Shown: one piece after another, positions 5,440-62,518 of the stretch
Position numbering within the stretch: the first letter of the stretch is position 1
Layout: each line of letters starts with the position of its first letter
Source: Patescibacteria group bacterium
GTDB lineage: Bacteria > Patescibacteriota > Microgenomatia > Levybacterales > UBA12049
Length of the DNA: 64,000 bases
Assembly (NCBI GenBank): GCA_038064195.1
Contig: JBBTTO010000002.1
Coordinates: 466,387-530,386 of the forward strand
Direction of reading: 5' to 3'
Made by a program: the position numbers and the translations under genes
Notes under the pieces: model-generated
Seen by the model: only the letters and a program-made list of their open reading frames with translations
Database searches by the model: none
Told to the model about the DNA's origin: nothing

Positions 5440-5487
5440 ATCGTAACATAGATACTCAACGATTGCAAAACTTGCTACAATTAAGGG

Positions 5488-6564
5488 ATGAAGATCGGAA
5501 TCTATGATCCGTACCTCGATACACTCTCAGGCGGGGAGAAGTATATGCTCTCAATTGCTTTGTGTTTGCAGGATGACCACGAGGTAGTGATTTTTTGGGA
5601 TAAAGCAAAAGAGCAGGAGATCCGTTCCAAAGCTAAAGAAAGGTTCGGTTTTGATCTTGAAAAGATTGCGTTTGCACCATCACTCTTTTCTAAAAGTGTT
5701 AGCTTTTTGACTCGCTACAACAAAAGTAAAGACTACGATCTCCTGTTCTATCTCAGTGACGGGAGCCTGCCCGTAGTTGCCTGCGACCTTATCGTCCATT
5801 TCCAGTCTCCTATGCTTTGGCTTAAAGGGCGTTCGCTTAAAAATCGTTTGAAGATGAGACGGATTAAAACTGTCATTTGTAATTCAAACTTCACCAAATC
5901 CTATGTAGATAAGATCTTCGGGATTGAAAGTAAGATCGTGTATCCGCCTGTCTCGATTCAAGGACGCTATCAACCCACCAAAAAAGAGCGGATCATCCTT
6001 AACGCCGGACGCTTCGGCATCAACTGGGCCGGTTCGAGTTTTAAGAAGCAGGATATTTTGGCCGAAGCTTTTGCCAGGCTTTATACCGAGGGGCTCAAAG
6101 GTTGGAAGCTGGTTTTTGTTATGAATGTTAAAGATGACGCGTTGTCGGCAGTTGACGATCTCAAAAATAAGTATAAAGATACACCTATCGAATTCGTTCT
6201 CAATCCTAACAATCGCGATCTGTGGAAGTGGTATGAGAAAGCTACGTTTTATTGGCACGCGGCGGGTTTTGCTGAGGACGTAACGACTCATCCGGATCGG
6301 GCCGAACACTTCGGCATGACGACAGTTGAAGCAATGGGAGTCGGTGCTGTTCCGCTTGTAGTTGGTGCCGGCGGACAAAAAGAGATAGTTGAGGATCAAA
6401 AGAACGGAAGACTCTGGAATACAATTGATGAATTAATAAGGTTCACTAAGGAGCTTATTCTAGACGATAAAAAGAGAGAGCTTCTCGTTCAGGAGGCAGT
6501 TAAATCATCAGATAGCTACTCCCTCGAGAGTTTCAATAAAAGTATTAAAGACCTTATTACATGA
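5488..6564 (+). CDS. GT4 (GT-B) glycosyltransferase
   Basis: C-terminal EHFGMTTVEAMGVGAVPLV is the E-X7-E motif of retaining GT4 enzymes. Confidence 0.85.
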   Translation: MKIGIYDPYLDTLSGGEKYMLSIALCLQDDHEVVIFWDKAKEQEIRSKAKERFGFDLEKIAFAPSLFSKSVSFLTRYNKSKDYDLLFYLSDGSLPVVACDLIVHFQSPMLWLKGRSLKNRLKMRRIKTVICNSNFTKSYVDKIFGIESKIVYPPVSIQGRYQPTKKERIILNAGRFGINWAGSSFKKQDILAEAFARLYTEGLKGWKLVFVMNVKDDALSAVDDLKNKYKDTPIEFVLNPNNRDLWKWYEKATFYWHAAGFAEDVTTHPDRAEHFGMTTVEAMGVGAVPLVVGAGGQKEIVEDQKNGRLWNTIDELIRFTKELILDDKKRELLVQEAVKSSDSYSLESFNKSIKDLIT

Positions 6565-8795
6565 ACAAAAAAGATCTTTTGAGTCTGGGCCTAGTACTTT
6601 TTGCCATTCTTCTTTTTTTTCGCGGTTTTTTTATTCAGGGAAGAGTTCCTATCCCGACAGATACGTTAGTAAATTTATTCCATCCTTTCAGAGATTATTA
6701 TGCTAAAGACTATCCCAGGGGAATTCCTTATAAGAACTTTTTGCTTGCTGATCCGGTGACTCAGCAAATCCCCTGGAAATCCCTGTCGATATCTCAGATG
6801 AGTAGGGGGCAGCTGCCGCTTTGGAACCCGTATCAGATGGCAGGCTATCCTCTGCTTGCTAATATCCAGTCTTCCCCCTTTTATCCGTTAAATATTTTGC
6901 TTTTTATAAGTCCGTTTATTTTAAGTTGGTCGGTTTTTATCTTACTTCAGCAAATTCTGGCGGCCTTCTTTATGTATTTGTTTCTGCGGAATCTAAAACT
7001 CGAAAGGTTGTCAGCAAGTCTTGGTTCGTTGAGTTTCGCATTTTGCGGATTTTTTATTGCCTGGTTGGAATGGGGGACTATTGTGCATACTGCTCTTTGG
7101 CTGCCGCTTATTTTACTCTGTGTTGATAAAATCCTTTCTGATAAAAGATATCGCTGGAGCGGAATTTTTATTTTTGCTGTCTTGTCTTCATTCCTGGCAG
7201 GACACTTGCAGACTTTTATTTATACGTGCGGTGTTACATCTTTATACTTTTTATATAGGTTTGTTGAGAGTAGATATAACCGACAATTTTTTTCCCGTTT
7301 TGTACTTTCGGGTTTGGCAGTGATTCTTATAAGTTTGCCGATTCTTGTTCCTCAGCTTCAGCTAATTTCCCTTTCAGCTCGGAATATCGATCAAAGCTGG
7401 CAGCAGGCGGGGTGGTTTATTCCTGTTTCTCAGGCGATTCAATTTATCGCGCCTGACTTTTTTGGCAATCCTGCTACTGGTAATTATTTCGGGGTCTGGA
7501 ACTACGGCGAATTCATCGGTTACATCGGCATTTTCCCTCTTCTGCTTGCTTTCTATGCACTTTTACGTCGTAAAAGTAATGATACCTATTTTTGGGCAGC
7601 ACTCGCAGCTATGAGTGTCTTACTTGCATTTCAGACACCGCTTGCCAAGCTTCCATATGAGTTGGGAATACCGTTTTTTTCCTCTACCCAGCCTACACGC
7701 TTGATTTTTGTGGCTGATTTTGCTTTATCAGTTCTGGCTGCGTTCGGACTTGAGAGATTACTCAAAACAAAAAGCAAAGTATTTCTTCCGCAAATTATTA
7801 TCATCTTATTTTTGCTATTTGGAGTAGGTTATGGCTTTATGCAGCTGCAAACTCGACAGATTTCAGTTACGAATTGGCAGGTCACTACACACAACCTGAT
7901 TCTGCCTCTATTTCTTGTGACAGTTGCCTGTGGCGGATTGTTCGTCAGTTCTCTTCTGGCTACGAAAAAAAGAACAGTCGTTGTAGCTTTTATGTTTGTT
8001 ATGACGATAGGTGATTTGCTTATTTTTGCCGGTAAATTTACTCCTTTTGCCAACTCCTCATATTTTTATCCGACAACCAAAGCAATAGCTTTTCTTAAAG
8101 AGCAGCCGGGTCAATTCAGAATTATGACGACTGATCGTCGAATCCTTCATCCCAATATTGCCACTCAGTATCGCCTCCAGAGTATAGATGGCTACGATCC
8201 TCTCTATCTTCTTAAGTATGGTGAAATGATGGCCGCCGTCGGAAGAGGAAAGCCCGATATTATCCCACCCTTCGGCTATTTCCGTATCCTAACCCCCGGG
8301 AGTTTTGACTCACCCCTTATTGACCTTTTAGGAGTGCGGTATATTCTGAGTCTGACAGAGATTCACAGTCCGCACGTAAAGCAGGTTTATTCAGAGGGAG
8401 AGACCAGAGTATATGAGAACGCCAGAGCGTTTCCGCGGGCATTTTTTGTAACGTCTGTCAGCCCGGCAGCCAATAATCAACAGGCAATCAATTTTCTCTT
8501 CAACTCCGCAGTTGATTTACATACAATAGCCATAGTTGAGGCCGGGGAATCAGAGTTGCCTACTCAATTTTCCCCTGGGAAAGTCACGATTGATTCCTAT
8601 ACTGAGAACAGTATCACTCTGACAGCACGCACTGACGGGAAAGCGTTTATGGTTTTGACCGATACTTTCTATCCGACCTGGAAGGCAACCGTTGACGGAA
8701 AGCCGACTGTTGTATACCGGACAGACTATAATTTCAGAGGCGTTGTTGTACCGGGAGGGGAACATAGGATAGTATTTAAAGATACACTTTTTTAA
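6561..8795 (+). CDS. YfhO-family polytopic membrane protein, paralog of 2909..5203
   Basis: 744 aa. LPLWNPYQMAGYPLLANIQSSPFYPL aligns with the motif in 2909..5203. Same architecture. ATGA overlap with the upstream GT4. Confidence 0.65.
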   Translation: MNKKDLLSLGLVLFAILLFFRGFFIQGRVPIPTDTLVNLFHPFRDYYAKDYPRGIPYKNFLLADPVTQQIPWKSLSISQMSRGQLPLWNPYQMAGYPLLANIQSSPFYPLNILLFISPFILSWSVFILLQQILAAFFMYLFLRNLKLERLSASLGSLSFAFCGFFIAWLEWGTIVHTALWLPLILLCVDKILSDKRYRWSGIFIFAVLSSFLAGHLQTFIYTCGVTSLYFLYRFVESRYNRQFFSRFVLSGLAVILISLPILVPQLQLISLSARNIDQSWQQAGWFIPVSQAIQFIAPDFFGNPATGNYFGVWNYGEFIGYIGIFPLLLAFYALLRRKSNDTYFWAALAAMSVLLAFQTPLAKLPYELGIPFFSSTQPTRLIFVADFALSVLAAFGLERLLKTKSKVFLPQIIIILFLLFGVGYGFMQLQTRQISVTNWQVTTHNLILPLFLVTVACGGLFVSSLLATKKRTVVVAFMFVMTIGDLLIFAGKFTPFANSSYFYPTTKAIAFLKEQPGQFRIMTTDRRILHPNIATQYRLQSIDGYDPLYLLKYGEMMAAVGRGKPDIIPPFGYFRILTPGSFDSPLIDLLGVRYILSLTEIHSPHVKQVYSEGETRVYENARAFPRAFFVTSVSPAANNQQAINFLFNSAVDLHTIAIVEAGESELPTQFSPGKVTIDSYTENSITLTARTDGKAFMVLTDTFYPTWKATVDGKPTVVYRTDYNFRGVVVPGGEHRIVFKDTLF

Positions 8796-8796
8796 C

Positions 8797-9753: not shown

Positions 9754-9790
9754 TTTGCTCAACAGCGGTTATAGTTTTTATCTAAAAATC

Positions 9791-9799
9791 TGGTATCAT
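9791..9799 (+). promoter_or_regulatory. Extended −10 element TGGTATCAT, 10 nt upstream of the 9810 ATG (near-leaderless)
   Basis: TGnTATCAT in a 56-nt AT-rich gap. No Shine-Dalgarno sequence is seen. Confidence 0.35.
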
Positions 9800-9809
9800 A
9801 TACATTATT

Positions 9810-10526: not shown

Positions 10527-10534
10527 TTTGTATT

Positions 10535-12211: not shown

Positions 12212-12212
12212 T

Positions 12213-19421: not shown

Positions 19422-19430
19422 TGTTACAAT
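19422..19430 (+). promoter_or_regulatory. Extended −10 TGTTACAAT, 9 nt upstream of the galE ATG
   Basis: TGnTACAAT in a 28-nt gap. The implied 5' UTR is about 3 nt. Confidence 0.35.
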
Positions 19431-20452: not shown

Positions 20453-20458
20453 TATAAT
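20453..20458 (+). promoter_or_regulatory. TATAAT −10 box, 14 nt upstream of the GT4 start at 20473
   Basis: Perfect TATAAT in a 58-nt gap. Confidence 0.3.
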
Positions 20459-20472: not shown

Positions 20473-21510
20473 ATGAAAATAGCAATTGATATCTCTCCTC
20501 TTGAGTCAGGGCACAAAGTTCGTGGCGTAGGATTTTATTTATTACATCTCAAGAAGGCTTTAGAGGAGATCTCTTCTCCCCACGAGTTTATTTATTTTAC
20601 AGGTACGGCGCCGGGGGATGCGGATTTGGTTCATTATCCCTACTTCGATCCGTTTTTTATAACCTTACCTCTCCATAAGAGACTCCCGACAGTCATCACT
20701 ATTCATGATTTAACACCTATTGTCTTTTCCAAGCATTTCCCCTCCGGTATAAAAGGGAGTCTTAATTGGCAGCTCAATAAGAAATTGGTCCGACGAATAG
20801 ATCATGTGATTACAGATTCTGATTCATCTACCCGCGATGTTATAAAGTATATCGGCCTGCCGGATTCTAAAGTATCATCTGTCTATTTAGCAGCCGGCGA
20901 AGAATTCAGAAGATCATCAAAGACCAAAGATCTAAGAACAAAATACAATCTGCCTGACAAATTTGCCCTTTATGTAGGTGATATCACGTGGAACAAGAAC
21001 TTACCTAGGATCATCCAAGCCGCAGAGGAGGCAGAAATACCGCTTATTTTGGTAGGTAAATCAATTACGGAAAAGAATTTTGACAGGAAAAATCCGTGGA
21101 ATAAAGACCGCCTCCAGGTGCAGGAGCTTTTAAGCCAAGCAAAGTATGCCAAAGCCTTAGGCTTTATTGATACTGACGATCTGGTCGGGCTATACAACCT
21201 GGCAGCTGTTCTTATGATGCCCTCTCTTTATGAGGGTTTCGGTTTGCCTGTCCTTGAGGCAATGCAGTCCGGGTGTCCTGTCATAACCTCAAAAGAGGGA
21301 TCTCTTACAGAGGTGGCAGGGGATGCGGCCTACTTTGTCGATGCATATGACGCAGAAAGTATCTCACAGGGACTGATTACTGTTTTCAAGTCTGCAAAGC
21401 TCCAGGCAGAATTATCTAAAAAAGGCCTCGTGAGAGCCAGGGCTTTTTCTTGGGGGAAAACCGCTGCCCAAACACTTTCAGTCTATGAGAGTGTTTTGGT
21501 TCACAAATAA
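20473..21510 (+). CDS. GT4 glycosyltransferase
   Basis: YEGFGLPVLEAMQSGCPVI is the E-X7-E motif. Its N-terminal domain resembles those of 50395 and the 41599 fragment. Confidence 0.85.
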   Translation: MKIAIDISPLESGHKVRGVGFYLLHLKKALEEISSPHEFIYFTGTAPGDADLVHYPYFDPFFITLPLHKRLPTVITIHDLTPIVFSKHFPSGIKGSLNWQLNKKLVRRIDHVITDSDSSTRDVIKYIGLPDSKVSSVYLAAGEEFRRSSKTKDLRTKYNLPDKFALYVGDITWNKNLPRIIQAAEEAEIPLILVGKSITEKNFDRKNPWNKDRLQVQELLSQAKYAKALGFIDTDDLVGLYNLAAVLMMPSLYEGFGLPVLEAMQSGCPVITSKEGSLTEVAGDAAYFVDAYDAESISQGLITVFKSAKLQAELSKKGLVRARAFSWGKTAAQTLSVYESVLVHK

Positions 21511-32287: not shown

Positions 32288-33525
32288 GAATAGGGATGAT
32301 CTTCCATTCGTTGAATGTTCCCGGGGGAAGTGCCTCTGTTTTTCTCTCATTAGCTTTAGCATTGCAGGAGCAAGGTCATATAGTTCATGTCTTTTGTTAT
32401 TATTTTGATCCTGAGTACTGTTTCCCTGAACTTAACAAAAATCTGAAAATCCACTACATCAAAAAGATTGACTCAAAGTCCCACAGGATCAATACTAACA
32501 GTATTTGGATCCGTTTATTATTAGGATACGAATATTATTTCAACGCGAGGAAAGTTTATCGACTTCTAAAGCAACACAAATTCGATATTCTATACGCCGC
32601 GGAAGCAAGTGCCTATATTCCGGCTTTAATCTACAAAAAAAAGAAATCTGCGCGAGTCTATTGGAGTGTGTTTGATCCTATTTCATTAGTTGATAATAAA
32701 CGTCCGGGAATGATAACACATAAGTATCGTTGGTTTGCCACGCTTCTTAAGGTGCATAATCTTTTTGACGCGCGTAATATTAGAAAAATTGATAGGGTAA
32801 TAGTTCCGACAAAGAAAATGAAACAACAACTTGATTCGTTCTATGGAATTAAAGCGGCTATCCTGCCGACAGCGGGAGTTCGAGTTCAAGATAGTAAAAA
32901 GAAGTATACTTCTTTAATAGAGAGCAGATTACGGGATCGATTCAATTTTAGAAAAAAGGATGAAGTTATTCTCTTTTCTAATGGACATCTTTTACCTCAC
33001 AGACGATACGAAGATGTATTATATGCTTTACAGCCGTTAATAGATCAAGGCTATCGCTTTAAATATATCATCTCTGGGAGTAATAAATTTGACCCTAATT
33101 ACTTTGTCTACCTCCAGGCTCTGATAGAGAAGTTGCATTTAAATGACTATACAATTCTTGATACGGATTTTAAGTCAAATGATGAAATTCTGGGTTACTA
33201 TCAATATTGTGATCTTTTTCTTTTTGTTAGCGTAGAGCAAACATGGGGTTTAGCTCCCTTTGAAGCAATGCTCTGTAAAAAGCCGGTAATCATCTCAAAA
33301 GGAGTAGGCTGTTCAGAAGTCTTAACAGACAGAAAAGATGTGCTCATCGTTGATGAACGTTCTCCAAAGCAGATTACAAAGAGTATTGGACTTCTTATAA
33401 AGAATAAATCATTATACAAAACAATATCGGAGAACGGGTATAAACGAACGCTTGCCGATTTCACGTATCAGAACATCGCCGGAAAGCTCGTGGATATGAT
33501 GAAGGAATCAGCTGGTCAGGTCTGA
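32284..33525 (+). CDS. GT4 glycosyltransferase
   Basis: GT-B architecture. TWGLAPFEAMLCKKPVI matches the EX7E region. ATGA overlap with the upstream gene. Confidence 0.8.
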   Translation: MRIGMIFHSLNVPGGSASVFLSLALALQEQGHIVHVFCYYFDPEYCFPELNKNLKIHYIKKIDSKSHRINTNSIWIRLLLGYEYYFNARKVYRLLKQHKFDILYAAEASAYIPALIYKKKKSARVYWSVFDPISLVDNKRPGMITHKYRWFATLLKVHNLFDARNIRKIDRVIVPTKKMKQQLDSFYGIKAAILPTAGVRVQDSKKKYTSLIESRLRDRFNFRKKDEVILFSNGHLLPHRRYEDVLYALQPLIDQGYRFKYIISGSNKFDPNYFVYLQALIEKLHLNDYTILDTDFKSNDEILGYYQYCDLFLFVSVEQTWGLAPFEAMLCKKPVIISKGVGCSEVLTDRKDVLIVDERSPKQITKSIGLLIKNKSLYKTISENGYKRTLADFTYQNIAGKLVDMMKESAGQV

Positions 33526-34709
33526 GAGAATACGGAGAGCATCTCTTCTGCATATTTATCCCATGATATAGTCTTTTTTACAAAATCCTGGCCGGCCGTG
33601 GCAATTTTTTTCCTAAGAGGATAGCTGTTAAAAAGAATTTCAATTTTTGTAGCAATCTGTGTCGGAGATTCCGGATCGACAAGCATAGCAGTTTGGTTAT
33701 CCTTTAATACTTCATGCGCCCCTGCCCCTCTACTGACAATAGCAACACAGCCAGACAACATCGCCTCAAAGACTGCAAGCCCCCATGTTTGTGGATTATT
33801 GGGGAAGACAAAAATATCAGATGTCTTATATTGTTTTTTTAATTCCTCTTCTGTGACTCTGCCTAAAAATTTTACATAAGATTCGAGATTGTATTTTTTG
33901 ACGAGTGACTCAACTAACAGATAGTACTGAAGGTCTGTCCTGGTTTCTCCGATAATTGATAGTGTAATATTTCCCAGCTTCTTTTTATTTACTAAGATAT
34001 TCATCGCTTTCACGAGATCTTCAAATCTTCGATGGGGGAAAAATATTCCTGTTGCCAGAACTGAAAGATTCTTCTTGGGTTTATAAATTCTTTTTGAGTA
34101 AAAGTCCTCCTGCTTTAATCCACTCCTTACAACAACTGCATCAGAGTGGAGGTATCTTTTAATAATCGATTTATTGATATTATCAAGAACAATAATTTTA
34201 TTTATTTTATTTCGGTACTTTATCCTGTATTCAAGATGAGACCACCGACGATACCATGTCTCGGGGAGACTTTCCCCTTTTACAAAGAGGTCATTCATCA
34301 TCCAGAAGTTCTTGGAAGGATCAAAATAGGCTGCGAGTTTGTACACTTCGGTTTCATGATAATTAAAAAAGTCATAGTGATTTCTTGCATCTACTTGCTT
34401 AATCAAATCACGAAGCTGTAGGAGATTGTGTCTTTTGTTAATAAAATGAGGAATAATATTGAATGTCTTTTGCAGCAGATTATATTTGGCTAAGTGGTGA
34501 GTCTGTTTTTTGCTGGACTCGTTTACTGAGTATACCTTGAGCTGTTTGAGAAGGTGAGGAAAACACTTCTCACGATCTAGATCTATGCAAAATATATCAA
34601 CGTGGTGTCCTTTGCGTTTGAGCGACAAAGCCAGTTCAAGAATTTGTCTGGCGCCGCCGCCGCTAATCTGTAGACCCCAGATAATCAAGGCTACTTTTTT
34701 CTTCTTCAT
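33516..34709 (-). CDS. GT4 glycosyltransferase, the only large minus-strand gene within the island
   Basis: TWGLAVFEAMLSGCVAIV EX7E region. The N-terminal glycine-rich ISGGGARQI is typical of GT4. I chose the start at MKKKKVALI (34709); an upstream in-frame ATG at 34805 is also possible. The 3' end overlaps that of 32284..33525 by 10 nt. Confidence 0.7.
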   Translation of the reverse strand: MKKKKVALIIWGLQISGGGARQILELALSLKRKGHHVDIFCIDLDREKCFPHLLKQLKVYSVNESSKKQTHHLAKYNLLQKTFNIIPHFINKRHNLLQLRDLIKQVDARNHYDFFNYHETEVYKLAAYFDPSKNFWMMNDLFVKGESLPETWYRRWSHLEYRIKYRNKINKIIVLDNINKSIIKRYLHSDAVVVRSGLKQEDFYSKRIYKPKKNLSVLATGIFFPHRRFEDLVKAMNILVNKKKLGNITLSIIGETRTDLQYYLLVESLVKKYNLESYVKFLGRVTEEELKKQYKTSDIFVFPNNPQTWGLAVFEAMLSGCVAIVSRGAGAHEVLKDNQTAMLVDPESPTQIATKIEILFNSYPLRKKIATAGQDFVKKTISWDKYAEEMLSVFSQT

Positions 34710-34799
34710 CAATACTGTATAGTATATGATATAGCCTGCTTTAATAATAGAGAGAAGTTGTAGCATTCTCTTCTTATCATATTTATGGTATAGGTATGT

Positions 34800-37067
34800 A
34801 TGCATTTGAAATATTTCTTATTAATTCTTCCCTTTGCAGTAATTGCATTTTTTAATAGAAGTCTTCTTTTTAGTACTTCTAACCCATCTTGGGGAGATAT
34901 GGTAGCCATCCCACCCCAACCCCTCCCCTTTGGAGAGTCACTGTTCCATGTCTGGAGGGATGTTTTTACAGGAGGATTTGGCCCGACGAATATTCCTCAC
35001 CTTATTTTGTCTCAGTTCTCACCGATTATTCCTCATGCAATTTTACAAGGCGTATATTTATTCTTTTTATTTTTTCTCCTCTTTATAAGTTTTATTGATA
35101 TCCTCAAACAACTATCGCTTAAGAAATCTTATATGGATTTTATGGTACTTCTTGAGGCAAATTTTTTGGTGCTTATTATCTATTTTTCTAATACATTTTT
35201 AGTTAACTTTATTCAGGGTAATCCGGATGTCTATTATGGCTATTTACTCGGCATTCCGTCGATTTTATATCTTTATTTATCTATACATAAGAATGATCTT
35301 GTGTCCGGACTGAAGATGGTGCTTCTTATAACGATAGCTACTTGGTTTGGCTCTTTCTCTATTTTTTATCTTGCAGCTCTACTTCTTCCCTTTTTTATTT
35401 TATTCGTCCTTCTCTATTGGAAAAATCTAAGCTTTAAATTTTTATTACTTCTTCTTGTGTTGCTTTTAGGTAGTAATGCTTCCTTATTATTTGCGACGAT
35501 CAAGCCAATTCTCGATGCTGTCAGTTTTATTAGTGCAGCTACCGGGAAGGAAATTATCGACACTTCTTTTTCCCTTTATAAAGGGATGAATCCTTTACAA
35601 CTTCTTTATTTCGCGGGTAATTTTGGTGATGTCACATGGCTTCTTTTTAACATCCCCGGAGGATACCTTTTTATGACATCCCCACTTTATCCTCTTAGCT
35701 CAGTACAAATTGTAATTGTCCTTTTCCTTCTCATTAAAGGATTGTCAATAACAACCGAGTTTACTCAAAGACGATTAATCCTGGGGATCCTTGCAATTTA
35801 TTTGATGTTTTTCTCACTACTTTTGGTATGGGATACGTCGATTTTTGCATCTATAGCCAAGCATATTCCCATGATCGCTCTTTATAGAAATCCAAAGAAG
35901 ATTGTCTTATCTCTTTATGTCGCCTACATTGTTACAGTTTTATTTATTAAACCCCTCGTCAAACCTCATTTTTTTAGATATTCGTTACTGGGAATTCTGT
36001 TATTGACGGCAATCCCTACTATCAGCTTTATAAATGACGGATATAACGGATTGAAGAACGCGCATATTGTCTCGTCTGCTTTTTATCATAAAGATGAAGC
36101 AAAAAGCACACAAAATTTCAATCGATTTATTAATTTTCCGGATAGATTCATTGAGCTCAAAAAATACTTCAAGACGCAAGATAGCGCAGCTAACGGCGAT
36201 GGGAATTATCGTGTAGTAATACTGCCAGATAATAGTCAGACTTTGTACCAAGGTCAGCTTTTTTATCTGCTTAATCCTTTTTATATCAACATAAATGCAG
36301 CAGTTTTTGGACAGTTGAAAGATACAGTGACTATCATGAGTGTCTTGTATACCAGTCTTATTGACGGCAATTCATCAGTATCAGCTCAATTACTGCAAAT
36401 CGCTAATGTTAAGTATGTGATTGTCGATAGACAGAGTCGATATGATCTGTATACAAGTGACAAAAAACCACAGATAAGAAGCTACTACGGTACATTTACA
36501 TCAGGCCAGCCTGAAGAATTTAAAAAAATACTAGATAAGCAGAAATTTTTAAAATTGATAAATACGAATAGAGATTTCTACGTTTATAAAAATATTAATT
36601 ATACGAACACACTCGTCTATGTGCCCCAACATGTCTGTGAGATGAAGAAGTTTGGGGTATCCAATAGCGATTGTGACTTTTATGAGTCTTCAGCGACACC
36701 TCTTCCTCAAACAAGTAAAAGTTTTGTCTCTCGTCTGGTTAGAACTAGTCCGACAGATTACAGTTTTGTTTTGCATGCTGAGGCCGCCGGCAAGACGGTA
36801 GTCTTCTTTAATCAGACGTTTGATAGATTCTGGTCGCTTAGTGGGGACAAGGATAGTATTGTCAAGGTCTCTGAACACAGGATAGGTAATTTCTATGGTA
36901 ATACCTGGACTGTAGACATGCCTGAGGGTGGAGATTATTCTTTTAAAATCTCCTACAGACTCGAGCCACCCTATGTTCTGTTAGTATTTGTTTCGATACT
37001 CAGTATACTTGGGACAATGAGTCTAATGATATTCTTATCATTGAAAAGAAAAAGACAGAACACCTAA
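34800..37067 (+). CDS. Large polytopic membrane protein with C-terminal extracytoplasmic domain and terminal TM anchor (uncharacterised; polymerase or GT-C candidate)
   Basis: 755 aa. About 12 N-terminal helices, a roughly 330-aa hydrophilic domain, and a final helix LLVFVSILSILGTMSLMIFL. No recognisable soluble enzyme motifs. Confidence 0.45.
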   Translation: MHLKYFLLILPFAVIAFFNRSLLFSTSNPSWGDMVAIPPQPLPFGESLFHVWRDVFTGGFGPTNIPHLILSQFSPIIPHAILQGVYLFFLFFLLFISFIDILKQLSLKKSYMDFMVLLEANFLVLIIYFSNTFLVNFIQGNPDVYYGYLLGIPSILYLYLSIHKNDLVSGLKMVLLITIATWFGSFSIFYLAALLLPFFILFVLLYWKNLSFKFLLLLLVLLLGSNASLLFATIKPILDAVSFISAATGKEIIDTSFSLYKGMNPLQLLYFAGNFGDVTWLLFNIPGGYLFMTSPLYPLSSVQIVIVLFLLIKGLSITTEFTQRRLILGILAIYLMFFSLLLVWDTSIFASIAKHIPMIALYRNPKKIVLSLYVAYIVTVLFIKPLVKPHFFRYSLLGILLLTAIPTISFINDGYNGLKNAHIVSSAFYHKDEAKSTQNFNRFINFPDRFIELKKYFKTQDSAANGDGNYRVVILPDNSQTLYQGQLFYLLNPFYININAAVFGQLKDTVTIMSVLYTSLIDGNSSVSAQLLQIANVKYVIVDRQSRYDLYTSDKKPQIRSYYGTFTSGQPEEFKKILDKQKFLKLINTNRDFYVYKNINYTNTLVYVPQHVCEMKKFGVSNSDCDFYESSATPLPQTSKSFVSRLVRTSPTDYSFVLHAEAAGKTVVFFNQTFDRFWSLSGDKDSIVKVSEHRIGNFYGNTWTVDMPEGGDYSFKISYRLEPPYVLLVFVSILSILGTMSLMIFLSLKRKRQNT

Positions 37068-40582: not shown

Positions 40583-40591
40583 TGATACAAT
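40583..40591 (+). promoter_or_regulatory. Extended −10 TGATACAAT, 6 nt upstream of the 40598 ATG (leaderless arrangement)
   Basis: TGnTACAAT in a 48-nt gap. The predicted TSS coincides with the A of the ATG. Confidence 0.35.
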
Positions 40592-41598: not shown

Positions 41599-42132
41599 AT
41601 GAAAATAGGTATCGACATCTCTCAACTTTCCTATCGTAATACTGGTGTTTCTAACTATCTCAAACACCTTGTAAAAGGGTTAATCGATACTGATCAGGAG
41701 AATGAATATATTCTTTTTTACTCTTCACTTCGCGGTCGACTTGATCTCCAGGACATTCCGCAGAAAAAAAACGTGAGACTAGTAAAGAGCTTCCTCCCAC
41801 CAACAGCACTTGATTTTATCTGGAACAAACTTCATATAGTACCTATTGAAATCTTTACCGGTTCTCTTGATATCTTTATTACCTCAGATTGGGTAGAGCC
41901 TCCGACGAAGGCAGCCAAGAAGGCCACCATTCTCTATGACCTGATTGTTTATAAATATCCCCAGGAGTCAACAAGTAAAATTGTCTCGACACAAAAGAAT
42001 AAATTAAAGTGGGTTAAAAAAGAAAGCGATGCGATCTTATGTATCTCTGAGGCCACAAAAAAAGATGCACAAAATCTACTGGGAATTAGCCAGGACAAAT
42101 TACATGTTATTTATCCCGGTTTTACTTTATGA
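41599..42132 (+). pseudogene. Truncated GT4 fragment (N-terminal Rossmann domain only, 177 aa)
   Basis: Resembles the N-terminal domains of 20473 and 50395 (MKIGIDIS...). It ends at HVIYPGFTL, where the intact neighbour continues HVIYPGIKP... with a C-terminal EX7E domain. No C-terminal half is present. Confidence 0.45.
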
Positions 42133-51552: not shown

Positions 51553-52600
51553 ATGGGGAGGAGCCGAAAGGGTTCTCCTTGCTCTGCATGAGCTTTTCCC
51601 ACAGGCGCCTCTTTATACCTCGGTCTACCATCATGGGAGGGCACCATGGGCCAGCGTATTTGATATCAGGACTTCCTTTCTTCAGAACTTTCCGTTTGCT
51701 AAAGACTCGCATGAATTGTATCCGCTTTTGATGCCGGCAGCCTTTGAGTCATTTACTTTTGCTGATTATGACCTGGTTATTTCGGTAACCAGCGAGGCAG
51801 CCAAGGGTGTTATTACCAAGCCTGGGACTATGCATATCTGTTACTGTCTTACTCCGACGCGGTATCTGTGGAGCGGTCGCAGTGAGTACTTTTCAAATCC
51901 GATTCTTTCTTTTCTGGCAACACCCGCGATAAACTATTTAAAAAAATGGGATCTGGTTGCCGCGTCCCGTCCCGATCACTATATAGCTATCTCCAGGGAA
52001 GTTAAGGCACGTCTGCACAATTTCTATAGGCGTGATTCAACTATCATCCATCCGCCTGTTGAGCTTTATGCAGGGATACCTCTCAAAAAAACAGCCGGAG
52101 ATTATTATCTCGTTGTTTCACGCTTGGTTCCTTATAAAAGAGTTGATCTTGCCATAAAAGCTTGTAATAAATTAGGCCTTCCCTTAAAAGTCGTAGGTAC
52201 TGGTAACGAGGAGGAGCGCTTACGCGAAATGGCCGGACCGACAGTCGAGTTCATAGGGTCAATATCTGACGAAGGATTGATAAAACTTTACCAGCACGCA
52301 AAGGCGCTTATTTTTCCAGGTCTGGAGGATTTTGGCATAGTTATGGCTGAGTCTTTAGGCTTTGGTAAGCCTGTCATTGCTTTTGACCGCGGAGGGGCCA
52401 GAGATATAGTTGAGGATGGTCGTTCAGGCATACTTTTCACTTCTCAGAATGTAACAGCTCTCATTGAAGCTATCTTAAGATCGCAGAAAATAGATTTTAA
52501 TCCGAAGACATTGAGGAGAAGAGCGGAATTTTTCGGCAAGGATCAATTCAAAAATAAATTTTCCCGCTATATTAAGGAGATTTGCAAAAGCATAAAATAG
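51518..52600 (+). CDS. GT4 glycosyltransferase
   Basis: LEDFGIVMAESLGFGKPVI EX7E motif. 360 aa. Confidence 0.8.
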   Translation: MKVALVYDRVNKWGGAERVLLALHELFPQAPLYTSVYHHGRAPWASVFDIRTSFLQNFPFAKDSHELYPLLMPAAFESFTFADYDLVISVTSEAAKGVITKPGTMHICYCLTPTRYLWSGRSEYFSNPILSFLATPAINYLKKWDLVAASRPDHYIAISREVKARLHNFYRRDSTIIHPPVELYAGIPLKKTAGDYYLVVSRLVPYKRVDLAIKACNKLGLPLKVVGTGNEEERLREMAGPTVEFIGSISDEGLIKLYQHAKALIFPGLEDFGIVMAESLGFGKPVIAFDRGGARDIVEDGRSGILFTSQNVTALIEAILRSQKIDFNPKTLRRRAEFFGKDQFKNKFSRYIKEICKSIK

Positions 52601-52603
52601 CAC

Positions 52604-52609
52604 TATAAT
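52604..52609 (+). promoter_or_regulatory. TATAAT −10 box, 10 nt upstream of the manC ATG
   Basis: Perfect TATAAT in a 19-nt gap. Near-leaderless geometry. Confidence 0.3.
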
Positions 52610-52619
52610 AGATAAAGTT

Positions 52620-53705: not shown

Positions 53706-53707
53706 CC

Positions 53708-54373: not shown

Positions 54374-54391
54374 TAATTTTCTTCTGTCAAG

Positions 54392-54421
54392 TTGACAAAG
54401 GCTAAAGCTCTCTCGTATCAT
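54392..54421 (+). promoter_or_regulatory. Candidate promoter TTGACA-N18-TATCAT, ending 6 nt before the ATG at 54428
   Basis: Perfect −35 hexamer. The ORF-track TTG start coincides with the −35 box, so the true start is more likely the ATG at 54428 (leaderless). Confidence 0.4.
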
Positions 54422-54427
54422 TGTCAT

Positions 54428-56368
54428 ATGCCCGGATTTGAGAAAATCGATCTTGATCTTAAAAACGAGATAGTCACACCACTCTCACCTATGGCGCGTA
54501 CTAAAAAACATAATGCGTTTATCAAGAAGCATCTAAAAGTTATCAGTATTGGGTCGGTAATTTTTGTTATCTTTTTGCTATTTGGGCTGATTCTCCCCCT
54601 CCTAACCGTTGTTAAATCAGCCAAACAGACGTACGCTCAGGCTAAAATCCTTTCCAGTGCTATCAAGCAGCAAAACATAGCAGTAGCCTCACAGGAGTTA
54701 GTTAAGACCCAATCTGCACTGGCCGATACCCAGAAAAAGATGCGTATTCTCGGCTATCTTCATTTTGTCCCGTTGGCTAACTTTTATTATAACGATGCCA
54801 GCCACCTGATGAACGCGGGAGCCGAAGGTCTCAAGACAGCAACTATTGTTATTGATGCCTTAAAACCATATGCTGACGTTTTAGGTCTTAAAGGACAGGG
54901 AAGCTTTGTCGGAGGATCGGCTGAAGACAGGATCAAAACTGCAGTTTTGACTATGGGTAAGATTACTCCTCAGATCGATCAAATCTCAGAAAGCTTAGTT
55001 AACGTTAAATCAGAGATTGATCAGGTAAATCCCAATCATTATCCGTCCGTTTTGTTTGGCTCCAAGATTAAGACTCAGCTGATAGCTGCTAAGACCTTAA
55101 CTGATGAGGGAGTTGCGTTTGTCAATCAGGCCCGTCCGCTTATTAAAGTACTTCCGTCACTACTCGGTGAGTCGGAAGAGAAAAAATATCTTATTCTTTT
55201 CCAAAATGATAAAGAACTGCGTCCGACCGGCGGATTTATCACCGCCTACGCTGTTTTCAGATTGGATAAAGGAATTATTCACTTAGAGCGATCTGATGAT
55301 ATTTATAAGCTTGATGACTCAATCTCCAGTAAGCCAGCAGCTCCAGCTCCGATTTTGAAGTATCTTCCTAAAGTGTACACATTAAATCTTCGTGACAGCA
55401 ATCTTTCACCTGATTTTGTTGAGTCAATGATTCAGTTTAATAAGCTCTATGATAAAGCCGGTCAAAAAGTCGCTGTTGACGGCATCATTGCTCTGGATAC
55501 TTACGTCCTCACCTCGACTATTAAAATTCTTGATGATCAGATAACAGTTGACGGCCAGACCTTTACTACCAAAAATGATCCCCGTTGTGACTGTGCCCAG
55601 GTGATCTATTCACTTGAGGATAGTATTTCCCGACCGGTCAATTACATCAAAACAGATCGTAAGGGATTACTCGGAGATATGCTTGCAGCGCTGATGAGTA
55701 AAGCTTTGTCTTCATCCCCTAAGATCTACTGGGGACCGTTATTTCAGTCCATGCTCGCCCAGACTCATCAAAAGCATATTCTTTTCTATCTCTTTGACAA
55801 AGATGCTCAGTCAGGTATTGAGTCACTTCAGGCAGCGGGTAAGATTGTGCCCTTTGAGGGGGACTATCTCCATATTAACGAAGCCAATTTCAGCGGAGCC
55901 AAGGCCAATCTCTTTATCACGCAAAAAGTTGAGAATTCCTATGATATTAAAGGTGACGGTACAATTAGTAAGACCGTGACTATTAATTACAAAAATACGC
56001 ACGCGCCGTCTGACTGTAATTTGGAGCGGGGCGGTCTGTGTCTGAACGCAGAGTATCGTGACTGGATCCGGGTCTATGTACCAAAAGGCAGTAAGCTGAC
56101 TGATAGTAAAGGCAATGAAGTCAAAGTCAGTACCTATGATGAGTTAGGCAAGACGGTCTTTGACAGCTTTATTACTGTCAGACCGCTGGGGGCCGCGACG
56201 TATACACTGACGTATACGTTGCCTTTCAAAGTACAAAATCGCGTCTTACCCTTGTTGATCCAAAAACAACCGGGGACTGATCAGCCGGCGTATACAGTCA
56301 AAGTCGGCGGACGTACCGTTGAGAAATTTGACCTCCTGATTGATAAAGAGCTTAAATTAAAGATTTAA
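54428..56368 (+). CDS. DUF4012-like membrane-anchored extracytoplasmic protein
   Basis: One N-terminal helix VISIGSVIFVIFLLFGLILPLLTVV, then about 590 aa of hydrophilic, probably exported sequence. I recognise the size and context as DUF4012-type proteins that accompany polysaccharide loci; this was not verified. Confidence 0.45.
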   Translation: MPGFEKIDLDLKNEIVTPLSPMARTKKHNAFIKKHLKVISIGSVIFVIFLLFGLILPLLTVVKSAKQTYAQAKILSSAIKQQNIAVASQELVKTQSALADTQKKMRILGYLHFVPLANFYYNDASHLMNAGAEGLKTATIVIDALKPYADVLGLKGQGSFVGGSAEDRIKTAVLTMGKITPQIDQISESLVNVKSEIDQVNPNHYPSVLFGSKIKTQLIAAKTLTDEGVAFVNQARPLIKVLPSLLGESEEKKYLILFQNDKELRPTGGFITAYAVFRLDKGIIHLERSDDIYKLDDSISSKPAAPAPILKYLPKVYTLNLRDSNLSPDFVESMIQFNKLYDKAGQKVAVDGIIALDTYVLTSTIKILDDQITVDGQTFTTKNDPRCDCAQVIYSLEDSISRPVNYIKTDRKGLLGDMLAALMSKALSSSPKIYWGPLFQSMLAQTHQKHILFYLFDKDAQSGIESLQAAGKIVPFEGDYLHINEANFSGAKANLFITQKVENSYDIKGDGTISKTVTINYKNTHAPSDCNLERGGLCLNAEYRDWIRVYVPKGSKLTDSKGNEVKVSTYDELGKTVFDSFITVRPLGAATYTLTYTLPFKVQNRVLPLLIQKQPGTDQPAYTVKVGGRTVEKFDLLIDKELKLKI

Positions 56369-56415
56369 AGTTATAAAATGTCATTCCGGACTTGTTTCGG
56401 AATCCCCAAAATGAG

Positions 56416-56436
56416 ATGCTGAATCAAGTTCAGCAT
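56416..56436 (+). other. Perfect hairpin (8-bp stem, 5-nt loop) ATGCTGAA-TCAAG-TTCAGCAT, 12 nt upstream of recO; no U-tract
   Basis: Exact inverted repeat read directly from the sequence. A weaker hairpin ATTCCG-N9-CGGAAT lies at 56383..56403. Confidence 0.3.
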
Positions 56437-56447
56437 GACAACTCAGT

Positions 56448-56996: not shown

Positions 56997-57003
56997 AGGC
57001 ACA

Positions 57004-58740
57004 CTACGAGCTTGTCGTGATGAAAGTATTGCAGAATTGTTCCTGTGAGAGATGCTCCAGAGCAAAAAGGCTAAGAGTCAGATTTTGGGGATACCGCTGT
57101 AAATTGTACTGAGAGCATGTACTGTCATTATAAATCCCGTAGATTCCTCCTCCGTCACGAAGGGAAGGGATCAACAGCGCTGATCCTGATCCGTCCTTAA
57201 ATCCGCATATTGAATCAATAATATAGATTTTAGTCGTGTCTGTTGTGTCTTTAAAATCCCCGCACGACAGAAAAGAAAATGAGCCAAGCTGCGTTGGTCC
57301 ATGGAGCTTTGAAGCCAGATAAACTTTTTTTAAAGTCTCAGCCGGGCTATTTTTGTAAAACATAACTTCAGGAATGAGGTCATTTTTTTTAGCTGAGACG
57401 ATCACTATAGATTTACCGGTGCTTTCAGGCTGGGTAGTATACCTTGACAGCACTCGTGTCGGGAAATCAAAATATCCGCCTAAGGGGAACTGGAAAAAAT
57501 AGATGACAATAAAATTAGCAACAGCCAGGGAATAGAGAATGACAATAAGAAGGGAGGAGTAGATGGGCGATAGCTGAAATCTTTTTCGGAAAGATTGATT
57601 GGCGCTGCCTATGCCATAGGCGATGATAAGCAGGAAAAAGGGAATCATCATGGTGATATGCGGAGTGAAGTTATCTTTTTGAGTATGCAGGAGCTGAGGT
57701 ATGATGCCGGTGAGAGCCAAAACTACTACGAAATAAAATTCTTTAGGTTGTTTGCGATATAACGCGATGAGGCCCAACAGGAGAAAGACACTATCTATCA
57801 TATAGAAAAGTCCCTGACGAAAAAGCGAAAGGAACAAATCCCCTCCGAGGAACAAATAGCTTGGGGAAAATACTGCAAATGCTTTTGAAATTATTTGTAG
57901 GAAATAAATTGTAATTTTATTAATAAGTAATCCTGAAAGAGGGTTGTGCATTGTGATCTTACGAAGTCCGTCCACGTCACTTGCCACTTGCGGGGAGAAA
58001 GGCGTGAGGATTTCAGTAACGCGGGTTGAGGGAGTATAGGCGAGCATGACGGCAGTAACGATTGTTATACAGAGTGCTGCTACTGCTAACCCTACATAAT
58101 AATTCTTATCTTTGTGTCTCGTATTCCAGAGGTAATAACAGGTAATGGCAATCAATGGAAGAAAAATAAGTTTGGTCGCGATGTATGAATAAAAGCCTAG
58201 AAGGAAAAGCGGTAAGGAAAGAAAAATCCAGCGTTTTTTTGTAACAAGTAGTACATAAAGAGCCAGGAGATAAAAAAACATCGCCGGTGCCATCTCATAG
58301 GCAGTCCGTCCGATGTAGACAAACCACGGGTTAAGAGCGAAAGTGCAGGCCGCAATCACGCCGACCCGTTCATTGAAAAGTCTTTTCGCAATCAAATAGC
58401 CAAGAAGTATAGTCAGAGTACTCAGTATCGCACCTAAAATTCTCGCGTTGAAAAGTGAGAGTGAAAATGGCCCGACTAAGTAGGTGAGTAAGAGGTAGGG
58501 AAGCTCGGCTTGAGGATTAGCACCTTTTGGATACTGGAAGAGAAATGGTGAGAGGACAGTGATAGTTCCTGTGATATCAGTCCCTGTCTGATAAAAAGAC
58601 CGGGCATTGAGGACATACTGCAACTCGTCATTGCCGATGGCTGTCGGCAAGCGATCAAGGAGTATAAAGCGTAGAGCTCCGCCGATCGTGAGTGCAAGGA
58701 TAAGGAAAAGGAAAGGAGTTCGTGAGGTTTTTCTGAACAT
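57004..58740 (-). CDS. Polytopic GT-C glycosyltransferase, PMT/ArnT family (minus strand)
   Basis: GNDELQYVLNARSFYQTGTDITG loop motif after the first helix, parallel to the DEVA.GYNAYS motif of 1273, 10535 and 12213. Start chosen at MFRKTSRTPF; an upstream in-frame ATG at 58827 is possible. Confidence 0.65.
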   Translation of the reverse strand: MFRKTSRTPFLFLILALTIGGALRFILLDRLPTAIGNDELQYVLNARSFYQTGTDITGTITVLSPFLFQYPKGANPQAELPYLLLTYLVGPFSLSLFNARILGAILSTLTILLGYLIAKRLFNERVGVIAACTFALNPWFVYIGRTAYEMAPAMFFYLLALYVLLVTKKRWIFLSLPLFLLGFYSYIATKLIFLPLIAITCYYLWNTRHKDKNYYVGLAVAALCITIVTAVMLAYTPSTRVTEILTPFSPQVASDVDGLRKITMHNPLSGLLINKITIYFLQIISKAFAVFSPSYLFLGGDLFLSLFRQGLFYMIDSVFLLLGLIALYRKQPKEFYFVVVLALTGIIPQLLHTQKDNFTPHITMMIPFFLLIIAYGIGSANQSFRKRFQLSPIYSSLLIVILYSLAVANFIVIYFFQFPLGGYFDFPTRVLSRYTTQPESTGKSIVIVSAKKNDLIPEVMFYKNSPAETLKKVYLASKLHGPTQLGSFSFLSCGDFKDTTDTTKIYIIDSICGFKDGSGSALLIPSLRDGGGIYGIYNDSTCSQYNLQRYPQNLTLSLFALEHLSQEQFCNTFITTSS

Positions 58741-58833
58741 AATTCTATGACTTATTGCAGTGTAGGGTATGGCTATCGGCGCGTCAATATCATCATGCTT
58801 TTCGCATGCTTCTTTTTCTGCTATCATAGGCTC

Positions 58834-60345
58834 ATGACTGAAACTACTATGGAGAAGCTCCAGGCTCTTTTTAAGCGTCGGGGATTTGTTTATCCCGGGT
58901 CTGAATTATATGGGGGACTGGCAAATACCTATGATTACGGACCAGTCGGCACGGAGTTACTGCGTAATATCAAAAATCTGTGGTGGAAGTATTTTGTGCA
59001 GAAGCGGGATGATATGGTGGGGCTGGATGCCAGTATTATCTCACATCATAAGATCTGGGAGGCTTCAGGTCACACTGCCGGATTTACTGACGCGTTAGTC
59101 GACTGCAAAAATTGCAAAACCCGTATTCGTGCAGATCATTTACTTGAAGAGTGGATAGGCGTTAACAAACAGGTTGATACTGCGGGTAAATCGTCTCCCA
59201 CACTGACTCAGGAAAAAATAAATGCGGCATTTTATACAGAAAAAGTTGAGGGTTGGACTCCTCAAGAGATGGGTCAGTTCATCAAATCTTTCGCGGTTCC
59301 CTGTCCTGTCTGTGACGGTAATCCCGGGACAGAGTGGACTGATGTCCGTAAATTCAACCAGCTTTTCCCCGTCCAACTTGGTATTGTCGAGGGCGAGCAG
59401 GGACTTGCGTATCTCCGCGGTGAGACGGCTCAGGGTATGTTTGTCGATTTTGACAATGTCGTTAATTCAACTCGCGTGAGACTTCCATTTGGTATAGCCC
59501 AAGTTGGTAAGAGTTTTCGTAACGAAATAACTTTGGGTAATTCTGTTTTTCGTACTATCGAATTTGAACAGGGAGAGATAGAGTATTTCTTCGATCCGAA
59601 GAAAAGTAACTGGGAAGAGCTATTTGCGGCCTGGAAAAATTCCATGTGGAAATTTGTTACCAACGAATTAGGAGTGAAAGAAGAAAATTTGCGCTGGCGT
59701 GAGCATACTGATGAGGAACGATCCTTTTACAGTCAAAGGACAGAGGATCTGGAGTACAATTTCCCGTTTTCGTCCAAAGGACGATCGGCCTCTGGTCGAG
59801 GCTTTAAAGAACTTTGGGGCTTGGCGTATCGTACGGATTATGATTTGTCACAGCATGAGAAGCATGCCAACCGCGAATTAGTTATCAATGATCCAGAGAC
59901 CAATGAGAAGATCAAGCCGCATGTTATCGAGCCGGCTGTGGGTATCAATCGTCTTTTTCTGATGGTTCTTAGCGATGCATATACAGAAGATTCTTCGGGA
60001 GGCTCAGAACAAGCTCGAGTAGTCCTTAAATTACATCCCCGACTTGCTCCATACAAAGTAGCTGTTTTCCCATTACTGAAAAATAAACCTGAGTTGGTTG
60101 AAAAGGCACGGGAAGTTTATGGAATGTTAAAAAACGCAATAGACGGTATTGTCATCTGGGATGACAGGGGTAACATCGGTAAGCGGTATCTCGCACAGGA
60201 TGAGATCGGTACACCTTTCTGTGTCACTATCGATTTTGAGACTTTAGAGGACGGTGCAGTGACTGTCCGTGACCGCGACACCGCACAACAGGAGAGAGTT
60301 AAGATTGAGGAATTAAGTAATTATCTTAAGACCAAACTCAGCTAG
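58834..60345 (+). CDS. glyQS: Glycine--tRNA ligase, alpha2 dimeric type
   Basis: KRRGFVYPGSELYGGLANTYDYGPVG is the N-terminal class II motif region. C-terminal anticodon-binding domain. Start at the first in-frame ATG; the ORF-track start at 58747 overlaps the divergent gene. Confidence 0.85.
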   Translation: MTETTMEKLQALFKRRGFVYPGSELYGGLANTYDYGPVGTELLRNIKNLWWKYFVQKRDDMVGLDASIISHHKIWEASGHTAGFTDALVDCKNCKTRIRADHLLEEWIGVNKQVDTAGKSSPTLTQEKINAAFYTEKVEGWTPQEMGQFIKSFAVPCPVCDGNPGTEWTDVRKFNQLFPVQLGIVEGEQGLAYLRGETAQGMFVDFDNVVNSTRVRLPFGIAQVGKSFRNEITLGNSVFRTIEFEQGEIEYFFDPKKSNWEELFAAWKNSMWKFVTNELGVKEENLRWREHTDEERSFYSQRTEDLEYNFPFSSKGRSASGRGFKELWGLAYRTDYDLSQHEKHANRELVINDPETNEKIKPHVIEPAVGINRLFLMVLSDAYTEDSSGGSEQARVVLKLHPRLAPYKVAVFPLLKNKPELVEKAREVYGMLKNAIDGIVIWDDRGNIGKRYLAQDEIGTPFCVTIDFETLEDGAVTVRDRDTAQQERVKIEELSNYLKTKLS

Positions 60346-61915: not shown

Positions 61916-61980
61916 TCTTGCTTTGAAGCATATCTACCATACATTATATTCGTATTTAGTTCAAGTAATATTTGGATGTG

Positions 61981-62008
61981 TTGACAAAGTACTCGCAGTT
62001 GGTACAAT
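61981..62008 (+). promoter_or_regulatory. Strong sigma70-like promoter TTGACA-N16-TACAAT, 9 nt upstream of the GTG start at 62018
   Basis: Both hexamers are near-consensus. The implied transcript is leaderless or has about a 3-nt leader. Confidence 0.45.
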
Positions 62009-62017
62009 TAATTCAGA

Positions 62018-62518
62018 GTGAAGAATAAGCAGATCATTATCGCAGTCGCGGTAGTCGTAGTTTTACTCCTTATTGGTGGGATATTTATCGTGCTGAAGAA
62101 GTCTCCTGCAGCCAATAGCACGGCTGAGCAAATGGCTTCACTTGATGAGGACGTCATCAAGCTCTCTCCTTCAGACATCGGTTTGAAGATCAACACTCTC
62201 TCCAACAACCACCAGATCAAATTTACTCTTTCAAAGGCCGAAGGTATTACTCATATTGAGTACGAGCTCTCCTATGAGGCTGACTCAGCCGGTGGTTCAA
62301 GTGAGGATGGTGACGGCAGTGGTCGTATCACACGGGGTGTTGCGGGGGAGGATACTATCGATAGTCAGAGTATGTACATCTCCAAGGTGCTGGATCTGGG
62401 AAGCTGCAGTAGCGGTACCTGCCGCTATGACAAAGGTGTCACCGGTATTCACCTCCTCCTCAAAGTGACCAAAACAGATGATAAAGTCTATCAGGTTGAA
62501 GACACTCTCAACTTCTAG
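62018..62518 (+). CDS. Hypothetical N-terminally anchored, probably exported protein
   Basis: GTG start. Helix IIIAVAVVVVLLLIGGIFIVL, then a 140-aa Ser/Gly/Asp-rich hydrophilic domain. Confidence 0.5.
   Translation: MKNKQIIIAVAVVVVLLLIGGIFIVLKKSPAANSTAEQMASLDEDVIKLSPSDIGLKINTLSNNHQIKFTLSKAEGITHIEYELSYEADSAGGSSEDGDGSGRITRGVAGEDTIDSQSMYISKVLDLGSCSSGTCRYDKGVTGIHLLLKVTKTDDKVYQVEDTLNF

Follow-up and report, generated by a model that had tools for sequence, protein, structure and literature searches.

In a 64,000-nucleotide (nt) stretch of the genome of a Patescibacteria group bacterium (contig JBBTTO010000002.1; hereafter the window), housekeeping (sigma-70-type) promoters, often of the extended −10 form TGnTAnnnT, very probably start transcription at the start codon of an operon's first gene or 2–8 nt ahead of it. 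A first-pass annotation had listed eight −10 boxes placed just ahead of start codons, with no room for a Shine-Dalgarno (SD) sequence, and had read them as signs of leaderless or near-leaderless messenger RNAs (mRNAs). We confirmed this observation: each of the eight motifs is present together with its start codon, the spacers from box to start codon are 6, 10, 9, 14, 6, 10, 6, and 9 nt, and an SD sequence is found at none of the eight (0/8). The interpretation is supported in a graded form, as the strict leaderless geometry (spacer 6) is seen at three of the eight sites and the other five would imply leaders of 2–8 nt. The TGn element is present at five of the eight, and a perfect TTGACA begins at 54392 and at 61981. 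We added two strong instances, so that the strict spacer of 6 nt occurs in the window at 5488, 40598, and 54428 and also at 58834 and, on the minus strand, at 5433 (Table 1). The minus-strand promoter at 5448 stands back-to-back with the one at 5473.

The same geometry recurs across related species. The closest relatives of the window are Candidatus Levybacteria (Patescibacteria, or candidate phyla radiation, CPR), and a scan with the DUF4012 protein as bait, in which a single genome stood for each GTDB species, yielded 80 loci at 56–80% protein identity. Gene calling in these loci and the window (open reading frames, ORFs, of at least 100 amino acids (aa), first ATG as start) gave 1,073 genes over 1.33 Mb. 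Lineage counts leave out the window and the bait gene, and comprise 74 loci with 425 operon-first and 335 operon-internal genes. TANNNT lies at spacer 6 in 106 of the operon-first genes (25%) versus a background of about 13 (~3%; P = 2e-63), and at spacer 7 in 43 versus about 13. The more specific TGNTANNNT is found at spacer 6 in 67 operon-first genes against a background of 0.9 (P ~1e-98), and TGnTANNNT is enriched ~70-fold at this position. No comparable peak is present at spacer 6 of the operon-internal genes, where TANNNT occurs 14 times (4%; background ~5) and TGNTANNNT three times (background ~0.2). The peak is fed by 62 of the 74 loci. Because the loci are syntenic, their proteins were also clustered and a fraction was taken per family: over the 118 of 193 families with at least one operon-first member, the mean fraction with a −10 box at spacer 5–8 is 0.43, versus ~0.11 in the control. 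The signal is limited to operon-first genes (25% vs 4%) and is sharp at 6–7 nt, within the distance of ~6–8 nt between the 3′ end of TANNNT and the start that marks leaderless architecture. The enrichment upstream of starts that the first-pass annotation would predict is borne out in this sample of 74 relatives' loci, which spans two genomic neighbourhoods.

Table 1. Start-proximal −10 boxes and related features of the window. PWM, position weight matrix; UTR, untranslated region; spacer, distance from the box to the start codon.
Motif	Position	Strand	Spacer (nt)	Start codon	Gene	Promoter features	Predicted transcript or assessment
TGCTACAAT (extended −10)	5473-5481	+	6	ATG 5488	GT4 glycosyltransferase, 5488-6564	PWM 9.1 bits; TGn; weak −35 (3/6)	predicted strictly leaderless
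TGGTATCAT	9791-9799	+	10	ATG 9810	GT2	PWM 11.2 bits, fourth-best −10 match of the window	predicted 5′ UTR ~3-4 nt
TGTTACAAT	19422-19430	+	9	ATG 19440	NAD-dependent epimerase/dehydratase	TAGTCA-N17-TACAAT with TG; PWM 10.7 bits	predicted 5′ UTR ~2-3 nt
TATAAT	20453-20458	+	14	ATG 20473	GT4	PWM 9.8 bits; no TGn; −35 3/6	predicted 5′ UTR ~7-8 nt; predicted geometry weakest among the eight sites
TGATACAAT	40583-40591	+	6	ATG 40598	GT2		predicted strictly leaderless
TTGCAA-N16-TATAAT	52582-52609 (TATAAT 52604-52609)	+	10	ATG 52620	sugar nucleotidyltransferase		predicted 5′ UTR ~3-4 nt
TTGACA-N18-TATCAT	54392-54421	+	6	ATG 54428	DUF4012 protein	11/12 match	predicted strictly leaderless
TTGACA-N16-TACAAT with TGG	61981-62008	+	9	GTG 62018	166 aa, no Pfam match	11/12 match with TG	predicted 5′ UTR ~2-3 nt
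TGTTACGAT	5448..5440	−	6	ATG 5433	small DUF5652 protein (79 aa, Pfam)		added to the first-pass list
TGCTATCAT	58819-58827	+	6	ATG 58834	class II aminoacyl-tRNA synthetase (GlyRS-like)	PWM 11.8 bits, third-best match of the window	added to the first-pass list
TAGCAT	16357	+	5	ATG 16368	482 aa, no Pfam match	PWM 5.3 bits; no TGn; no −35	weak candidate for an extra instance
TGCTACAAT	62697	+	41	ATG 62747	mraZ		counter-example
GAGATGCTGAAtcaaGTTCAGCATGACA (short hairpin)	56411-56440				between DUF4012 gene and recO

At four of the genes in Table 1 the promoter could be followed through orthologues, whose footprints cover 54428 (DUF4012), 58834 (GlyRS-like), 52620, and 62018; those at 5488, 9810, 19440, 20473, and 40598 lie outside this comparison. 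Loci L001–L006 are the same strain as the window (99.6–100% identical) and so carry no conservation information for 9810, 16368, 19440, 20473, and 30152. Upstream of the DUF4012 gene, TTGACA, the 17–18-bp spacer, and TAT(C/G/T)AT are kept over ~55 species, with N6 to the ATG in most, while the other positions vary freely. The GlyRS-like gene has ctgCTATCAT-N6-ATG in most of ~68 orthologues; an automatic pick placed the spacer at 6 in 40 of them, and inspection by eye added several. TTGACA-N17-TG.TACAAT is kept at the 62018 orthologues with a spacer of 9–10 nt, which indicates that the 2–4-nt leader itself is conserved. In the orthologues of 52620 the TATAAT is kept, as is TTGCAA in close relatives, and the spacer varies from 6 to 15.

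That TATAAT-like hexamers fall near many starts of an AT-rich genome by chance, without function, is one alternative, and the raw counts would allow it. The window has a GC content of 40.5% and an intergenic share of ~2–3%, and its two strands hold 46 copies of TATAAT, 65 of TATCAT, and 38 of TACAAT, mostly within genes; many in-gene PWM matches equal the flagged sites. A generic sigma-70 two-hexamer scan returned 47, 64, 38, and 11 matches versus 38.9, 60.9, 42.4, and 8.0 in shuffled sequence. We rejected this generic sigma-70/terminator scan as a discriminator, as its matches are at the shuffle level and the flagged sites are not singled out; its three 11/12 matches are all intergenic. The placement of the −10 boxes in the window is nevertheless non-random. 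With a PWM trained solely on the other species' loci, 9 of the 18 candidate operon-first genes reach at least 5 bits at spacer 3–15, where the remaining offsets of these upstream regions would lead one to expect ~1 (P = 1.2e-7). The sequence TGNTACAAT occurs seven times in the window versus 2.25 expected, five of its six plus-strand copies are intergenic, and four sit 6–9 nt ahead of a start (post hoc P ~2e-10). This positional enrichment, the spacer-6 peak in 74 independent loci, and the retention of the boxes at orthologues while the flanks drift make a chance origin extremely improbable.

The aligned spacer-6 and spacer-7 sites of the relatives read T(TGACA)-N17/18-TnTGnTAtaaT-N6-ATG; in 65% position −14 is a G, and hexamers of the TTGAC type gather 17–18 bp upstream of the −10 box. 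Both this logo and the window sites show the signature of an extended −10 promoter, TGn and/or a TTGACA-like −35 hexamer at 17 ± 1 bp. By its composition, the aligned motif is to be read as a promoter contacted by the sigma factor of RNA polymerase, not as a ribosome-binding site. The boxes could instead be a non-SD ribosome-binding or translation-enhancer signal within leadered mRNAs, comparable to the AT-rich "group B" motif found in Bacteroidota. The lineage has no SD enrichment and the upstream regions of its internal genes are A-rich, so some SD-independent signal must exist, which suits such a motif. The boxes, however, are missing before operon-internal genes; TGn at −15/−14 and TTGACA 17–18 bp upstream are contacts of sigma and not of the ribosome; and the fixed 6-nt spacer of TAtaaT is what separates a −10 box from +1. 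We consider a ribosome-binding role very unlikely.

The lack of SD sequences extends beyond the start-proximal promoters. We scored GGAG, GAGG, or AGGA at spacer 3–12, with shifted windows as control. In the relatives these 4-mers are not enriched (8% of first genes and 9% of internal genes versus 5–8% in the controls or, for internal genes, 9–11% versus 5–12%), and they precede 4% of the genes in the window and 4% of leaderless-type first genes. The same naive pipeline applied to a 50-kb region of E. coli gave 62% versus 4% in the control. SD usage in the relatives' loci and the window, to which the first-pass annotation had also pointed, thus shows no enrichment; leadered first genes have a weak excess of GGAGG/AGGAG, for instance mraZ. 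Gaps between same-strand genes peak at −4 (the ATGA overlap) and at +1 to +3, a distribution that would be consistent with translational coupling.

A further alternative accepts the promoters as real and holds that most transcripts come from read-through or other upstream promoters, with leaderless mRNAs in the minority and the short leaders of the 9–14-nt sites perhaps used by the conventional 30S pathway. Read-through is plausible, since the genes crowd on one strand and convincing terminators are few between operons; the 9–14-nt spacers fall outside the main peak, and recO has a leaderless-type box in some relatives and none in the window. Against this stands the exact −10-to-ATG spacing kept across dozens of species, which points to selection on the geometry that read-through transcripts would not impose, and we regard this alternative as unlikely.

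Several points weigh against transcription starting at or near the start codon. In-gene −10-like sequences reach equal or better PWM scores, so that sequence alone is no proof of use. Spacers of 9–14 nt, as at five of the listed sites, are only ~1.5–2-fold over background in the relatives, and the support for these five comes from motif strength and, for 52620 and 62018, from orthologue conservation. The relatives' gene starts were called naively as the first ATG, and the 80 syntenic loci sample two genomic neighbourhoods with ~190 gene families rather than whole genomes. The 3′ end of 16S ribosomal RNA (rRNA), which holds the anti-SD sequence, was sought in all loci, and no rRNA is present in any of them. 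The positions of the transcription start sites (TSSs) are themselves predictions from the promoter motifs.

From the motifs, the start codons, the spacer peak, the conservation, and the lack of SD sequences, we infer where transcription starts, how the ribosome is recruited, and how internal genes are coupled. An ordinary extended −10 promoter would be positioned such that +1 is the A of the ATG (spacer 6) or a few nucleotides upstream (spacers 9–14), and the resulting mRNA would have no space for an SD site. By analogy with known leaderless mRNAs, the 5′-terminal AUG or GUG would be bound directly by the ribosome and initiator tRNA, in a 70S- or IF2-dependent manner independent of SD and bS1. 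The downstream genes would be translated without SD sequences, largely by termination–reinitiation coupling at overlapping or abutting stop and start codons or by SD-independent loading. A broader proposal, which we offer tentatively and hold a little short of probable, is that Levybacteria, possibly along with Microgenomatia or the wider CPR, have essentially given up SD-guided initiation, with about half of the operons leaderless or bearing a 2–8-nt leader and the internal genes served by coupling or SD-independent loading.

The start codons assigned to the eight sites hold up. For seven of the eight, the ORF offers no earlier possible start. At 20473 an in-frame TGA directly upstream of the ATG means that the start cannot lie further upstream, and the in-frame TAA at 62009–62011 likewise leaves no possible start upstream of GTG 62018. 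The exception is 54428, where an upstream in-frame TTG at 54392 coincides with the −35 hexamer; all 22 aligned DUF4012 homologues (22/22) start at the methionine equivalent to ATG 54428 (MxGFEKID). Pfam domains begin at residue 1–4 in the GT2, epimerase, and NTP-transferase genes, so their true starts are not far downstream. The longest ORF of the GlyRS-like gene starts at 58747 and overlaps a divergent gene; this start is probably wrong, and ATG 58834 is the likely true one. The residues between the equivalent of ATG 58834 and the conserved MEK(I/L) motif differ in sequence and length among orthologues, the pattern that would be expected if translation begins at a 5′-terminal AUG. On the minus strand, ATG 5439 directly abuts its −10 box, and its transcription is unlikely. 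Applied to the window, the −10-N6-ATG rule shifts at least three starts (54392 to 54428, 58747 to 58834, and 5439 to 5433).

Two other start assignments drew our attention. The longest ORF of a PMT_2-family gene (57004–58827, minus strand) extends across the GlyRS promoter; ATG 58740 (MFRKTSRTPFLFLILAL...) is probably where the gene begins, and a start-proximal −10 box was not found at this gene. The longest ORFs at 33516–34805 (minus) and 34800–37067 (plus) have divergent starts that overlap in the palindrome ATGCAT. We rejected these overlapping starts (34800/34805) as real; the minus-strand GT4 most likely begins at ATG 34709 (MKKKKVALII...), which has TACTAT 9 nt upstream and leaves a normal divergent intergenic region of ~90 nt.

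Some genes of the window depart from the rule. The PWM scan of the window found no start-proximal box at recO, at 41599, or at minus-strand genes, and the gene at 30152 has TTGACA-N17-AATAAT ~23 nt upstream. The mraZ transcript would be leadered, judging from the position of its −10 box (Table 1), with GTG-type repeats spanning the promoter. These repeats straddle the TGCTACAAT box within 62690–62749, and in relatives (L007–L086) the region upstream of mraZ holds two to three tandem boxes (AGTGGGA / AGTAGGA / GTAGTGA) at ~10–11-nt spacing. The boxes resemble MraZ operator repeats, which makes autoregulation likely. Many mraZ orthologues carry GGCAGG or GGAGGCAGG 4–8 nt before the ATG, among the few SD-like signals of the lineage. 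At recO (56448), TATAAT-N7-GTG of the leaderless type is found in L007, L011, L012, and L022, and the window recO has an ATG start and no −10 box, indicating promoter gain or loss at one orthologue within the lineage.

The short hairpin just ahead of recO has a variant, GATTCTG...CAGAATGACA, and hairpin-like copies recur between genes in L021, L028, L031, L045, L062, L084, and others, often 10–25 nt ahead of a start codon. The loci hold 37 CAG[AC]ATGAC matches, of which about 18 belong to the hairpin type. The hairpin has no Rfam match; it may serve as a terminator or processing site or represent a repeat element. Scans for tRNA genes and Rfam families gave no matches in the window.

The source contig, 1,075,823 bp from an ultra-small bacterium, derives from Hainich groundwater (0.1 µm filter fraction; ENA ERZ1292617), and the window spans its bases ~1,009,270–1,073,269. 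The window is a large cluster of glycosyltransferase and cell-envelope genes, almost single-stranded, followed by recO, the GlyRS-like synthetase, and mraZ, and the 10 kb upstream of it are a single gap-free operon without new operon starts. Positions 1–53700 of the window together with positions 1–10000 of L088 form a run of more than 60 kb of nearly unbroken plus-strand genes, encoding GT2/GT4 glycosyltransferases, PMT_2/YfhO/PTPS-related membrane glycosyltransferases, flippases, asparagine synthase, a methyltransferase, and a DegT aminotransferase. Cell-surface glycan synthesis takes an unusually large share of the ~1.08 Mb genome. The DUF4012 protein has thousands of homologues, and those named by source are labelled Patescibacteria, Levybacteria, Dojkabacteria, or Parcubacteria. 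Among the 80 loci, most informative titles name Candidatus Levybacteria/Levyibacteriota or a "Patescibacteria group". Many other loci (L007–L011, L014, L016, and others) with clear Levybacteria-type proteins bear titles of foreign phyla ("uncultured Gammaproteobacteria bacterium", Methylomirabilota, Eisenbacteria, Saccharimonadales) and are evidently mislabelled source records.

If the broader proposal is true, this would be a low-GC lineage with genetic code 11 outside the taxa known for leaderless expression, possibly tied to the pared-down CPR ribosome. The promoter geometry suggests that an uncultured lineage with a reduced ribosome relies on SD-independent initiation, and bears on the distribution of translation initiation mechanisms among bacteria and on the question of which parts of the ribosome are dispensable. 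Gene callers based on SD sequences are known to misplace starts in metagenome-assembled genomes, and the −10-N6-ATG rule would fix gene starts in CPR genomes. It would also supply rules for promoters and expression that the emerging genetics of Patescibacteria could use. The literature, in a full-text search with most subscription journals outside it, held no report on leaderless mRNAs or the use of SD sequences in CPR, Patescibacteria, Saccharibacteria, or Levybacteria. The mechanism is a known one that appears to be noted here for this lineage for the first time, with priority uncertain. Experimental TSS maps exist for mycoplasmas; we know of none for the Levybacteria lineage.

Leaderless "TA-led" or group C genes have been described in Actinobacteria, Deinococcus-Thermus, mycoplasmas, and some others (PMC3160421, PMC6028130, PMC3898074, PMC12340547, 10.1101/2022.07.25.500264). 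The window and its relatives share with these genes (Zheng 2011, PMC3160421; Lomsadze 2018, PMC6028130; Cortes 2013, PMC3898074; Zhong 2025, PMC12340547) a TANNNT ~6–8 nt before the operon-first start without SD, and a large share of operons of this type, which in the Levybacteria here is ~25% at spacer 6 and ~45% at spacer 5–8. In both, the rule reveals mis-annotated starts, as for pprI in Deinococcus. Deinococcus-Thermus and Actinobacteria differ in being high-GC, with a loose TAnnnT box and SD sequences on their other genes, and code-11 group C genomes are nearly all high-GC (MetaGeneMark-2 preprint, 10.1101/2022.07.25.500264). The Levybacteria here, in contrast, have 40% GC and a full TnTGnTAtaaT with frequent TGn, and their internal and leadered genes lack the SD enrichment that group C would lead one to expect. 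Group C genomes of Mollicutes, in which 30–60% of transcripts are predicted to be leaderless (10.1101/2022.07.25.500264), are closer in having small, low-GC, reduced genomes, a strong −10 box near the start, and a high predicted leaderless fraction. Mollicutes (Mycoplasma), however, belong to Bacillota and use genetic code 4, whereas the organism here is a member of Patescibacteria with code 11.

Group B (Bacteroidota and cyanobacteria) shares the near absence of SD motifs upstream of genes, but there an AT-rich motif precedes all genes, including internal ones, whereas the promoter here is limited to operon-first genes. The CPR ribosome is pared down, with a shortened bS1 and missing bL9/uL30, and loss of the anti-SD sequence is reported only in a Parcubacteria subgroup (Tsurumaki et al. 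2022, PMC9297842), which implies that this organism has probably retained it, a further likeness to group B. With extended −10 sigma-70 promoters in general the sites share the TG one base upstream of the hexamer, a −35 that is often weak or absent, and a TTGACA that, if present, lies at 17–18 bp. The promoter itself is ordinary, its distance to the start codon being the one unusual feature here.

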